From positions 88,332-111,215 of the IMG/VR virus record IMGVR_UViG_3300042946_000144: a DNA stretch of 22,884 nt. One strand, given 5' to 3'. A model generated the notes under the pieces. The model was given only the letters and a program-made list of their open reading frames with translations, ran no database searches and was not told the origin of the DNA. This DNA is from a virus. Its lineage: Duplodnaviria; Heunggongvirae; Uroviricota; Caudoviricetes. Shown here piece by piece: positions 14,104-17,489 of the stretch (its first letter is position 1; every line of letters begins with the position of its first letter). Position numbers and translations under genes: made by a program.

Positions 14104-14313
14104 TCAATTATTTAGATGCTTCGAATAGTATATATAACAAGAGAAAAAGAAACCTGACATTAAGTAGAAAATGATATCTGCTGCCCAGAAAGAACCAGTG
14201 ATATCCATAATCATTTTGAATAGAAAGTCGTAACCAAATGGCAGAAAGAACATCCCTAACATTAGGAACAATTCCTTTTTCTTTTGTATTTTTTTTCTTT
14301 GATCTTGAGTCAC
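14104..14313 (-). CDS. Small two-TM membrane protein (GTG start)
   Basis: Basic N-terminus followed by hydrophobic LFLMLGMFFLPFGYDFLF and FWAADIIFYLMSGFFFSCYIYY. The start is uncertain (see findings). Confidence 0.6.
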   Translation of the reverse strand: MTQDQRKKIQKKKELFLMLGMFFLPFGYDFLFKMIMDITGSFWAADIIFYLMSGFFFSCYIYYSKHLNN

Positions 14314-14337
14314 CGTCCATTGTTTAAAAATTGGTTA

Positions 14338-14466
14338 TCACCTACCCTGACCTCTATATTTAGAGACAGGTTTATCTTTTGGTCCTTTTCCTTTAGAGGG
14401 TTTTCCTCCTTTTCTTTTTCCGAAGGTGGTTTTTATTGCAACACCTACTGATTTTACTTTTGCCAT
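14338..14466 (-). CDS. 42-aa basic protein ending in YRGQGR (not in ORF track)
   Basis: Hand translation: MAKVKSVGVAIKTTFGKRKGGKPSKGKGPKDKPVSKYRGQGR; start context gcaaaacataaccaATG. Confidence 0.8.
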   Translation of the reverse strand: MAKVKSVGVAIKTTFGKRKGGKPSKGKGPKDKPVSKYRGQGR

Positions 14467-15111: not shown

Positions 15112-16230
15112 TTATTTTGATTTATCTTTCTTGTCATCTTGTGTAGCGTATTTAATACCCATAATTGTACCAACTATTGAAAATGCATTTGTTAGTAGAA
15201 CACTAAACATGTTACTCCAAGTAGAGCCAATTATCTGAGTATCTTTACCTGTTAGTATTGCCATCCAATATAAAATAGTGGTAACAACACCAACTCCTAC
15301 TATTACCGCCAAAGCACATTTAACTATTACTTTTATTAACTCATTTTGACTCTTCTTTAACACCATGTCTAAATCATTCAGAGCTATATTTTTTTCTATC
15401 TCTATTGAATCTTTAAGTTTGTTTGAATTATCTAACTCAATTTGTAAACTTTTTGAAAGTTCATCTATTTTCTTCTTATTATTTATTGAATCAGTAACAT
15501 CTGTAGCAATCTTAATCACTCCAGTAACATTACCCTTACTATCAAATACTGGGTTATATGATGCTTGTAAATATATTGTAGAACCATCTACTTTTCTTCT
15601 TTCAAATATTCCATCAAAATACTTACCCGTTTTTAAGCTTTCCCAAAACTTGACATACTCATCAGATTTAGAATACTCGTAACTTATAAATATGCTATGA
15701 TGCTTTCCAACGATTTTATTTTTTTCGTTAGATTTATAACCCATAGTCTTTAAAAATATAGAATTTGCATCTAGTATGAACCCATCAATGTTAAAACTAA
15801 TGATTGCACTACTTCTATTAATTGCATCTATTTGTTTTTTACTATCTACAATAGCAGTAATGTCAGTAGCAACTTTCATTATTTTAGTAATCTTACCACT
15901 ATCATCAAAAATGGGATTATAAGTTGCTTGTAAGTTAATTAAAGAACCATCTTTTCTTCTCCTTTCAAATTCTCCTTTGTAATACTTACCACTTCTTAGT
16001 ATATCCCAAAACTTTTCATATTCTAATGATCTAGCATAGTCTTCACATACAAATGTACTATGATGCTTACCAATAAGTTCTTCGTGTCCATTCTCACCAT
16101 ACCCCATTGCTTTCAAAAAGATATCATTTACACCTAATATAATACCATTAAGGTCAAAGTAAATAAGAGCATTACTCCTATTTATAGCTTCCATTCTACT
16201 CAACAACTCTTCTTTCGATAGATGTTTCAT
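15112..16230 (-). CDS. Tandem PAS-PAC sensor protein with coiled coil and C-terminal two-TM hairpin, no enzymatic output domain
   Basis: Two repeats of FD.NG.IL..N.IFLK.MGY.....GKHHS.F....Y..S.EY.KFW..L..GKY..G.FERR..DGS.I.LQA.YNP.FD..G......K.ATD.T (BdlA/Aer-like MCP PAS type), then a heptad-rich region, then two hydrophobic helices. Confidence 0.88.
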   Translation of the reverse strand: MKHLSKEELLSRMEAINRSNALIYFDLNGIILGVNDIFLKAMGYGENGHEELIGKHHSTFVCEDYARSLEYEKFWDILRSGKYYKGEFERRRKDGSLINLQATYNPIFDDSGKITKIMKVATDITAIVDSKKQIDAINRSSAIISFNIDGFILDANSIFLKTMGYKSNEKNKIVGKHHSIFISYEYSKSDEYVKFWESLKTGKYFDGIFERRKVDGSTIYLQASYNPVFDSKGNVTGVIKIATDVTDSINNKKKIDELSKSLQIELDNSNKLKDSIEIEKNIALNDLDMVLKKSQNELIKVIVKCALAVIVGVGVVTTILYWMAILTGKDTQIIGSTWSNMFSVLLTNAFSIVGTIMGIKYATQDDKKDKSK

Positions 16231-16511
16231 TATTCTGAACCTGTGTTGTTAGTAGTATCGTTACCTTTGTTTTTAGCAGCAATGAACTTGTCTAAAGATG
16301 TAAGTCCCAGACAACCAAAAGCTAAAAGAGCTACACTCTCTACAAGGGCTGGTGATGGGGCAACGCTCTGTTCTGAAAAGCTATTGTGGTATAAAGTGAT
16401 ACACAAAGTGAGGCTGCAAACGATTCCCATTAATCTTTTAGAGGAAATTCTACCTTTGTCATCTGTAAACAACTCTCTAAAGTCTTTTAGTAAACTAGTT
16501 ATGATTTTCAT
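16230..16511 (-). CDS. Putative holin (two TM helices, class II-like)
   Basis: 93 aa; ISSKR followed by two hydrophobic segments and a charged/polar C-terminal tail; located in the lysis region. Confidence 0.6.
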   Translation of the reverse strand: MKIITSLLKDFRELFTDDKGRISSKRLMGIVCSLTLCITLYHNSFSEQSVAPSPALVESVALLAFGCLGLTSLDKFIAAKNKGNDTTNNTGSE

Positions 16512-17119
16512 TATTTCTTAAGTTTTATTTTCCAATATGAATGAATTCCGTATTGTAAATCCCCAAAAGAATTTACACCTACAGAACCTCCGAATAATTT
16601 ATCTTTCTTTGTTTTAACCATAAACCCACCCATTATACCATTTGGTACAGGAGATCCTATTATAGATCCTCCTATATACACCTGGTTTCTTTTCTTCTCT
16701 TGGATGGTGATGGTCTCTGTAATCTTTGGGACTTTTATATGGTAGTCTACAGATCTTCCAGATAAGGCATTTTTATTCACTGTATCTTTTATAGCTACAT
16801 AACCAAAGCTATCTAGCTTTACAGTGTCCTGATAGATTCCCATCTGTAAGAACTTGGATGACAGAGCAACATACTGTTCTAACAGTTTAGCATAGTTTGT
16901 GTCTGGTAGATACTCAGTAGACCATCTTTCTATAGGAACCTCAATTGTTTCAACAAGCTGAGGCTTAGTGACAATTGTACTATCCTTTACAATCCAAACT
17001 GTATCTCTTTTTACAGAAGGTTGAACTGGTTCAGAAGAACCACCACATCTTTGTAATAAGATGATGATAATCAACAAGATAACAATGAGTGCATTAAAGT
17101 TTTCTTTAATAAACTTCAT
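16511..17119 (-). CDS. Exported membrane-anchored protein, putative spanin-like lysis accessory
   Basis: N-terminal K-rich plus hydrophobic anchor ending LLQRC (possible lipobox), an extended DT-rich stalk, and C-terminal amphipathic beta strands ending YWKIKLKK. Confidence 0.5.
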   Translation of the reverse strand: MKFIKENFNALIVILLIIIILLQRCGGSSEPVQPSVKRDTVWIVKDSTIVTKPQLVETIEVPIERWSTEYLPDTNYAKLLEQYVALSSKFLQMGIYQDTVKLDSFGYVAIKDTVNKNALSGRSVDYHIKVPKITETITIQEKKRNQVYIGGSIIGSPVPNGIMGGFMVKTKKDKLFGGSVGVNSFGDLQYGIHSYWKIKLKK

Positions 17120-17424
17120 TACTTTGATACATTTGAGATGATGGATGTAATGTATTGGGCAATCATAAGAATAGCAACCCCTATACCAACAGTCCAGTAA
17201 ACCCTGTTTCTGAAGGATCTTTGCTTCTCTTGTTCCTTCTCCAGTTTATCAATCTTGTCCTTCATCACTTCAATATCATGCATAAATCCTCCTGTTTTTG
17301 TCAGGGGATTACCAAGAATAGCATCCACCACCTGGGTGAGCTTGGTGTTAATATCATCAATTTTTTCTTCCAATTCTGTTAAGCGTGCATCCATGTTTTG
17401 TAAATCTGTGATAAACTGTTCCAT
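17119..17424 (-). CDS. Coiled-coil protein with single C-terminal TM helix (holin/antiholin-like)
   Basis: Heptads LTELEEKIDDINTKL and MKDKIDKLEKEQ; TM segment VYWTVGIGVAILMIAQYI. The ATG at 17424 is preferred, because the track start lies inside a leader hairpin. Confidence 0.6.
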   Translation of the reverse strand: MEQFITDLQNMDARLTELEEKIDDINTKLTQVVDAILGNPLTKTGGFMHDIEVMKDKIDKLEKEQEKQRSFRNRVYWTVGIGVAILMIAQYITSIISNVSK

Positions 17425-17444
17425 TATAAAGTGTTTCTTTACAT

Positions 17445-17489
17445 AAAAAAAGAATTCCCCACCCACAAATAGCTGCAGGAAAAGGGAAT
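17445..17489 (-). terminator. Terminator-like hairpin in the leader of the lysis cassette
   Basis: On the - strand: ATTCCC-tttt-CCTGCA-gctatt-TGTGGG-tg-GGGAAT-TC-TTTTTTT. The outer stem is perfect, the inner stem has G-U pairs, and a U7 tract follows. Confidence 0.55.

Follow-up and report, generated by a model that had tools for sequence, protein, structure and literature searches.

What does a protein built around two sensory PAS domains do in the lysis cassette of a phage? The question is raised by a gene in a stretch of 22,884 nucleotides (nt) from a virus of the class Caudoviricetes, positions 88,332 to 111,215 of the IMG/VR record IMGVR_UViG_3300042946_000144; this whole stretch is referred to here as the window. 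The gene encodes a protein of 372 amino acids (aa) in which the PAS domains are followed by a coiled-coil helix and a hairpin of two transmembrane (TM) segments, and it stands directly upstream of an endolysin gene. The time at which a phage lyses its host is central to its fitness and, to our knowledge, T-even-type lysis inhibition is the only well-studied case in which it changes in response to a signal. The original prediction, made from the nucleotide sequence before any database was searched, held that the hairpin is the output of a sensor that sets the time of lysis. We followed up this proposal by comparative genomics, from which all functional statements below are drawn, and we lean towards reading the product of the tandem-PAS hairpin gene as an accessory regulator of host lysis that is gated by a signal.

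Architecture of the tandem-PAS hairpin protein

Pfam recognizes two PAS stretches in the protein, at residues ~26-126 and 141-247, through PAS_3 (1.4e-26; 93 bits against a cut-off of 25.6) and PAS_9 (1.3e-22), with no other domain above its threshold, and NCBIfam reports the PAS S-box alone (TIGR00229, 106 bits). Neither library contains a kinase, methyl-accepting chemotaxis protein (MCP), GGDEF or DNA-binding domain that matches the protein, and the MCP signalling domain PF00015 is likewise absent in both; PHROGs and PADLOC gave no match for the full-length sequence. Beyond the second PAS domain, PAS-B, about 128 residues remain, which comprise a helix and the two TM segments. An AlphaFold2 model, for which 39 dereplicated homologues served as input, reached a predicted local distance difference test score (pLDDT) of 83.6. 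It consists of two PAS folds (pLDDT ~90; Table 1), an unbroken helix from residue 246 to 327 in which some 52 aa of coiled coil lead straight into TM1, a loop of four residues (328-331) and a second helix (332-367) made up of TM2 and the tail.

Both PAS domains end in a D-I/V-T motif, which in PAS proteins usually precedes a signalling helix. In the hydropathy scan TM1 peaks at 2.5, and TM2 is weaker (peak 1.76), amphipathic and contains Ser, Thr, Asn and Gly; the tail that follows it is rich in Lys and Asp. Because the protein has no signal peptide, the PAS domains and the tail are predicted to be cytoplasmic and the loop periplasmic. The original prediction had read from the sequence two PAS repeats free of any output domain, some 55 aa of heptad-rich helix, two hydrophobic helices and a charged tail, and the profile scans, the structural model and the hydropathy analysis agree with it on each of these points.

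Table 1. Features of the tandem-PAS hairpin gene and of the surrounding lysis cassette (positions in the window)
Feature	Position	Strand	Basis
Gene for tandem-PAS / coiled-coil / two-TM protein, 372 aa (P0001)	15112..16230	-	open reading frame (ORF), Pfam, model
PAS-A, aa 21-123, ATDIT motif at end	15862..16170	-	Pfam, model, PDB relatives
PAS-B, aa 142-244, ATDVT at end	15499..15807	-	Pfam, model
Coiled-coil signalling helix, aa 246-297, runs on into TM1	15340..15495	-	model, linker heptads of relatives
TM1, aa ~298-326, strongly hydrophobic	15253..15339	-	hydropathy, alignment
TM2, aa ~338-359, amphipathic, near-invariant in family, core TNAFSIVGT	15154..15219	-	hydropathy, alignment, dN/dS
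Charged C-terminal tail, aa 360-372, predicted cytoplasmic	15115..15153	-	sequence; low pLDDT
93-aa two-TM protein, charged tail, family 'c2', holin-like	16230..16511	-	topology, usual position
202-aa protein, N-terminal membrane anchor or possible lipobox	16511..17119	-	sequence
115-aa coiled-coil protein, C-terminal TM, XhlA/hemolysin-like	17119..17466	-	phrog_937 1.2e-05 (weak)
GH19 endolysin, 197 aa	14491..15084	-	PF00182 4e-09; phrog_181 2.6e-63
Very basic 42-aa peptide ending YRGQGR	14338..14466	-	recurs beside endolysins in related loci

The hairpin module is a viral family under purifying selection

Among 5.8 billion proteins searched, more than 120 are full-length relatives with 81-99% identity, the same length and the same Pfam content. 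From separate contigs we collected 38 homologues, dereplicated at 95%, that are 71-85% identical to the window protein. Measured against these homologues, the ratio of nonsynonymous to synonymous substitution rates (dN/dS) is 0.085 overall, with synonymous sites near saturation (pS 0.62), and selection on the tandem-PAS hairpin protein is strongly purifying. Taken region by region, dN/dS is lowest in the hairpin (0.05), intermediate in the PAS part (0.085) and highest in the coiled coil (0.145). That the hairpin is the most constrained part argues against its being a mere anchor, as well as against the protein being a decaying fragment of a host gene.

The hairpin extends well beyond the tandem-PAS proteins. 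The last 128 residues, compared with 1.8 billion cluster representatives (50% clustering), found 102 matches, most of which are 130-260 aa long and carry the hairpin module at the C-terminus. No Pfam family covers this module. The sole library family that resembles the coiled coil plus hairpin is phrog_1544 (3e-05 for the relative P0125 and 0.005 for the C-terminus of the window protein), a weak match to a family annotated without function. A pattern scan located the module in at least 574 IMG/VR contigs as opposed to 8 contigs in 185,579 species genomes; all eight are contigs of metagenome-assembled genomes (MAGs) from unrelated phyla and probably reflect binned phage DNA. The hairpin module is an unnamed, almost purely viral family.

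The sensory heads attached to this module vary. In addition to two PAS domains, we found a single PAS domain (P0124, P0133), a GAF domain (P0132; PF01590, 2.5e-17) and, most commonly, an unnamed N-terminal domain, some 75 residues long, with the conserved signature LEGNILK...RRKRL, termed here the N-domain. A Foldseek search of viral structures with a model of the N-domain form gave a single match, an uncharacterised member of the same family.

The segment that joins head and membrane is equally informative. Between RRKRL and the membrane-proximal motif DLD..QKK, the N-domain forms have 48, 55, 62, 69, 76, 83 or 90 residues, that is, a linker length of 6 modulo 7 in all 53 unique proteins. For the PAS forms, the spacing between the last ATD(I/V)T and DLD..QKK is constant, at 44 residues, in 55 of 60 proteins. 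Length changes by whole heptads are expected of a coiled coil that keeps its register for signalling, as in histidine kinases and chemoreceptors, and the linker, which steps in whole heptads, behaves as a signalling coiled coil. In the models of both the window protein and the N-domain form, the helix continues uninterrupted from the sensor into TM1. The proposal that the hairpin is the output thus gained support from three sides, namely the low dN/dS of the hairpin, its occurrence under several sensor heads and the heptad-stepped coiled coil that leads to it.

A few members carry unusual N-terminal pieces: a fragment of the SOUL heme-binding family (1.2e-19), a C2H2-like zinc finger, a glycosyltransferase fragment and a Rossmann-like start (P0135, P0125, P0161, P0126). 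They may represent additional exchanges of the sensor, or else chimeras created by gene calling. The MAG contigs L092-L095 come from Verrucomicrobia, Bdellovibrionota, Gemmatimonadota and Alphaproteobacteria, and in L092 the order of PAS protein, small gene and module resembles that of the viral loci. If these contigs are binned phage or prophage DNA, as is probable, they would hint at hosts beyond Bacteroidota.

Association with lysis genes

In the window, the stop codon of the gene for the 93-aa protein and the start codon of the PAS-hairpin gene share 1 nt (TAATG). Overlaps of this length also connect the next two upstream genes, so that three membrane-protein genes are linked to the PAS-hairpin gene by 1-nt overlaps, and on the other side a gap of 27 nt separates it from the GH19 endolysin gene. 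These junctions, together with the Pfam and PHROGs matches of the endolysin, bear out the placement between a holin-like two-TM gene and a GH19 endolysin that had been noted originally. The window gene is encoded beside holin-like and endolysin genes in a lysis cassette, as are antiholins and other lysis regulators.

To see how general this arrangement is, we called genes on 173 loci with a simple codon-usage caller, clustered the neighbour genes and annotated the cluster representatives by Pfam and PHROGs; the gene and TM calls are heuristic, and the loci are the 80 best matches of each scan rather than a random sample. Dereplication at 95% identity of the target protein left 112 loci. As a lysis marker we counted an endolysin, a holin of the Phage_holin_4_1 family or a c2 protein, c2 being the family of the 93-aa window protein.

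An endolysin gene lies at most three genes away in 28 of the 37 evaluable tandem-PAS loci and in all 11 evaluable single-PAS loci, which makes 39 of 48 for the PAS forms together, and any lysis marker is found in 32 and 11 loci, respectively. About 4% of random genes would be expected this near an endolysin (~190 genes per genome), and the corresponding binomial figure should be taken as indicative only, given the relatedness of the loci and their choice as best matches. Most of the endolysin genes occupy +1 or +2 and share the strand of the hairpin gene, and their type varies: at the tandem-PAS loci we found GH19 (14 loci), PG_binding_1 plus phrog_3000-type (8), GH24 phage lysozyme (6) and Peptidase_M15_3 (5). 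The pair of immediate neighbours differs in 43 of the 48 PAS-form loci. The cassette of the GAF form holds GH19 and glucosaminidase genes, and 27 of the 37 evaluable N-domain loci have a lysis marker. The homologues are therefore neither mostly cellular, with 8 MAG contigs as the only ones in species genomes, nor mostly outside lysis modules, either of which would have spoken against a role in lysis.

The c2 family deserves separate consideration, because it supplies the candidate holin of the window. Its members are 70-117 aa long with two TM segments and a charged tail, belong to no library family, and occur on at least 499 viral contigs. Among 56 evaluable loci anchored on c2, an endolysin is encoded within five genes in 38, typically directly downstream, and the hairpin module is present in 4. 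It follows that c2 occupies the canonical holin position directly before endolysins where there is no module, and that such cassettes work without a PAS-hairpin gene; in the window, the latter is inserted exactly between c2 and the endolysin. The 93-aa protein itself has no match in Pfam or PHROGs, including their holin families. The description of this gene as holin-like can accordingly be kept as far as its two TM segments and its usual position are concerned, with no holin family to back it.

Other small TM proteins are also common in these cassettes: they are encoded close by in 38 of the 39 PAS loci with an endolysin, and many of these loci also have Phage_holin_4_1. Combined with the c2 cassettes that lack the module, this favours an accessory regulator over 'the' holin of the cassette, although it falls short of proof.

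A kinase and a receiver accompany the N-domain form

The N-domain loci differ from the PAS loci in one conspicuous respect. Genes for a histidine kinase with an HATPase_c domain and for a receiver are encoded together, immediately upstream of the hairpin gene, in 35 of the 37 evaluable N-domain loci, compared to none of the 48 loci of the PAS-fused forms. The kinase combines a pair of TM segments at the N-terminus with PAS and/or GAF domains and HATPase_c (1.4e-14), and in NCBIfam it aligns to kinases of the EnvZ/CpxA/RstB type over the dimerisation and catalytic regions. The receiver is a stand-alone protein of 145 aa whose Response_reg score is marginal (30.4 bits, with a cut-off of 30.2) and in whose sequence the acidic pocket and the phospho-acceptor Asp are visible. 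The triads of kinase, receiver and module in turn sit among Phage_holin_4_1, c2 and endolysin genes, as at L154. Judged by their sequences and their location on viral contigs, these pairs apparently are two-component systems owned by the phages.

The kinases and the fused forms draw on the same sensors. The PAS domain of the kinase is 47% identical to PAS-A of the window protein and has the GKHH, QASYNP and ATDIT motifs in common with it; the GAF domain of the fused form resembles, by eye, that of the long kinases. Parts that are fused in one lineage and encoded by separate adjacent genes in another are a classical sign of working together. That the same sensor types are either fused to the module or present in the adjacent kinase suggests that one membrane module is reached directly in some phages and via a phosphorelay in others.

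Complete kinases with the 145-aa receiver were seen at L106:4329-5561, L159:3433-5556, L097:634-1071 and about 70 more loci (L097-L177). The phage kinases also have in common a conserved N-terminal membrane region that contains Cys.

The genome of the window phage is different in this respect: a search of it detected no receiver domain. The same search found one HATPase_c match (6.3e-08), in an ORF of 783 aa upstream of the window (G000:C1:83729-83968, L178), which, instead of a kinase, may encode a GHKL ATPase, for example a topoisomerase. Since this ORF has no receiver partner, we did not count it as a kinase of the hairpin system.

What the PAS domains might sense

The best match of the PAS pair in the PDB is 3EWK, the sensor MmoS (E-value 7e-13, 24% identity; Foldseek 1e-15), and further remote relatives of the same flavin adenine dinucleotide (FAD) type (Aer/NifL/MmoS) were found at 3e-06 and 1e-05. 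A Foldseek search with the AlphaFold2 model matched MmoS, DosP and FixL. The nearest solved relatives, with PAS domains in tandem or single, thus include both FAD sensors (MmoS, Aer, NifL) and heme sensors (DosP, FixL), at an identity of just 14-24%. The His residues of the GKHH stretch are invariant among the homologues and could contact a cofactor. By eye, the GKHHS stretch matches none of the flavin-contact motifs that we take to be characteristic of LOV or Aer.

What can be said of the cue follows mostly from the predicted topology, which implies that it is intracellular or membrane-proximal. Redox or oxygen as the PAS signal is a reasonable guess from such remote relatives, not a finding. 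The original prediction fared accordingly: a conserved output hairpin near lysis genes is borne out, and a redox, oxygen or nitric oxide signal is unsupported by relatives this distant.

Structurally, the sensor half of the window protein is an ordinary tandem of PAS domains. MmoS, NifL, Aer, DosP and FixL have in common with the window protein a PAS fold from which a D-I/V-T motif leads into a coiled-coil helix. They are cellular sensors, whereas the hairpin family is viral, and in the window protein the output is a two-TM hairpin instead of a kinase, phosphodiesterase, MCP or DNA-binding domain. Many homologues carry the automatic Joint Genome Institute (JGI) name 'methyl-accepting chemotaxis protein', although they lack the MCP signalling domain, and the family analysis corrects this widespread misannotation.

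A model of signal-gated lysis and its alternatives

Taken together, these results are compatible with a simple model. The two cytoplasmic PAS domains would sense an intracellular cue, the signal would run down a dimeric coiled coil continuous with TM1, and the conserved two-helix hairpin would change its state in response. The hairpin would then delay or advance the permeabilisation of the membrane by the phage holin, for which the 93-aa c2 protein is the candidate here, and the outcome would determine the moment at which the GH19 endolysin gains access to the cell wall. In other phages, input to this hairpin would come from a single PAS domain, a GAF domain, or a membrane histidine kinase of the phage itself together with a free receiver that presumably docks on the small N-terminal domain. 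More tentatively, and with less confidence than for the window gene itself, we suggest that phages whose hosts are aquatic and low in GC, probably Bacteroidota, may own one-component or kinase-receiver-N-domain pathways that gate lysis post-translationally through this one hairpin.

Several observations weigh against the model. About 5 of the 48 PAS-form loci lack a recognisable lysis gene over a distance of five genes, and some of these adjoin replication genes; in the N-domain form, an endolysin is encoded within five genes in just 21 of the 37 loci. The c2 family is present in only about half of the module loci, and c2 therefore cannot be the universal partner of the hairpin. A complex prediction for the hairpin module and c2 gave a score of 0.00 with a partner pLDDT below 50, which speaks neither for nor against binding. 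There is also no cultured carrier: in 50,697 GenBank phage records, tblastn with the full protein yielded three PAS-only matches, and with the N-domain member P0140 none. Finally, TM2 is near-invariant across very different phages even though holins are very diverse, which could mean that its target is a conserved component of the host membrane.

This last point is also the strongest argument for the alternative that survives best, which we nevertheless consider unlikely, namely that the protein is a membrane effector unrelated to lysis timing, such as a modulator of a host membrane machine or a superinfection-exclusion or competition factor. Near-invariance of TM2 in phages whose holins and endolysins differ suggests that its partner is conserved and possibly a host component, and the minority of loci without lysis genes would be unsurprising under this scenario, as would the location of the others, lysis regions being known hot spots for accessory genes. 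A passenger of this kind is harder to reconcile with a linkage to endolysins that holds for four families of these enzymes and 43 different pairs of neighbours, mostly at +1 or +2 and in the same orientation, and with the 1-nt overlaps that tie the gene to the other membrane proteins of its cassette; moreover, PADLOC matched no defence-system model.

Less probable again is that the protein itself is a sensor-gated holin or pinholin, whose hairpin would oligomerise into the lethal lesion while the PAS domains hold it closed or open. Its topology is like that of class II holins (N-terminus inside, two TM segments, charged cytoplasmic tail), and TM2, with its low hydrophobicity and many Ser, Thr, Asn and Gly residues, resembles hole-lining helices. 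The gene directly precedes the endolysin gene in many loci, one of which, L010, has an endolysin and no other small TM protein nearby. L010 stands against the 38 loci that do have such proteins, many of them with Phage_holin_4_1, and c2-to-endolysin cassettes are widespread without the module (52 of 56). The protein matched no holin family in Pfam, PHROGs or NCBIfam, its strong sequence conservation is atypical of holins, and at 372 aa (130-260 aa for the stand-alone hairpin forms) it exceeds the usual size of class II holins, which is below 150 aa.

By far the least credible possibility is that a fragment of a host chemoreceptor was captured and is now decaying or functionless, with the hairpin as a mere anchor: the automatic chemotaxis names and a PAS subtype like that of cellular sensors would fit it, but dN/dS and distribution (strong constraint, above all on the hairpin, at saturated synonymous sites; hundreds of viral contigs against essentially zero cellular copies) rule out a host-gene remnant, and the missing MCP signalling domain and the heptad register kept in the linkers point the same way.

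Relation to known systems

An accessory, signal-gated lysis regulator would have partial counterparts among characterised systems. The closest in function is lysis inhibition in phage T4, where the antiholin RI acts on the holin T (PMC11413866), and similar lysis inhibition has been described for the Vibrio phage ICP1 (PMC7182436). Like RI and RIII of T4, the window protein is a phage-encoded accessory membrane protein, encoded beside lysis genes, and it would likewise tie lysis time to a sensed signal. RI differs in that its sensing domain is periplasmic, contains no PAS or GAF domain and has no sequence similarity to the window protein, whose sensor is predicted to be cytoplasmic and whose conserved two-TM hairpin, the part in the membrane, belongs to an unnamed family and presumably targets a holin. 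Antiholin homology (RI, LydB, S107-type dual start) was sought for the 372-aa protein in PHROGs and Pfam, with no match.

The N-domain loci are comparable to the LytSR two-component system of Firmicutes, which controls the holin/antiholin-like proteins LrgAB and CidAB (PMC4830213, PMC5717393). In both, a histidine kinase and a response regulator are tied to holin-like membrane proteins, and in LytSR also to the energy state of the membrane. LytR, however, is a cellular, DNA-binding transcriptional regulator, whereas the phage receivers have no output domain and are encoded beside a membrane protein, which suggests post-translational control. The window phage departs further from LytSR in that it has a direct PAS fusion in place of a receiver.

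A link between a PAS-domain receptor, a small-molecule signal and a host-killing decision is known from VqmA-Phi of the vibriophage VP882 (PMC8284805). VqmA-Phi is a PAS-helix-turn-helix transcription factor for the switch from lysogeny to the lytic cycle; in the window protein no DNA-binding domain was found, and its gene belongs to the lysis cassette of a phage that appears to be lytic. A full-text literature search found no description of a phage lysis protein controlled by PAS, GAF or a two-component system, in line with the earlier statement that no characterised PAS-regulated lysis system was known, and none of a phage-encoded two-component system.

The family may be described as a candidate signal-responsive lysis regulator from two unnamed viral membrane families, with a realistic chance of phage-owned signal transduction. 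At least these two families, the hairpin module and the holin-like c2 family, are defined by the present analysis. If the model is correct, the N-domain loci would contain the first phage two-component system and the hairpin family the first lysis clock under the control of a cytoplasmic sensor, and many environmental phages would wire PAS, GAF or even a full kinase-receiver pair directly into their lysis machinery. The hairpin system also makes testable how a cytoplasmic signal turns into a membrane event, and it is modular enough for experiments, with swappable sensor heads, a register-sensitive coiled coil and a membrane output of about 75 residues.

The virus record and further genes of the cassette

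The IMG/VR record is complete, with 111,215 bp and direct terminal repeats, and the window is its last 22.9 kb. The left part of the window is devoted to replication and nucleotide metabolism (an exonuclease, a ribonucleotide reductase, a UvsX-like recombinase and PhoH), and the genes for virion proteins are located in the right part on the minus strand. In a search of sequencing runs, the window stretch was found almost only in lake-water metagenomes, all of them DNA metagenomes.

The genes upstream of c2 are less well defined. The similarity of the 115-aa protein to XhlA stays under the cut-off in Pfam (0.04). The 202-aa protein, which has no family in Pfam, PHROGs or NCBIfam, may be a spanin-like or outer-membrane component; in 27 of the 56 c2-anchored loci a member of its family is encoded upstream of c2, at a distance of two or three genes.

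Basic peptides of 40-48 aa that end in Y(R/V)GQG(K/R), like the one downstream of the window endolysin, recur beside endolysins (L039:5132-5269, L045:6923-7051 and other loci), with 26 members in two clusters at module-anchored loci and occurrences in 9 of the 56 c2-anchored loci. They matched no family, and could be cationic envelope-disrupting peptides or something quite different. Next to this peptide gene, two overlapping frames on the minus strand of the window, 14104-14313 and 14108-14320, are both open, and their products would be a two-TM-like protein of 69 aa and a basic, hydrophobic one of 70 aa, respectively.

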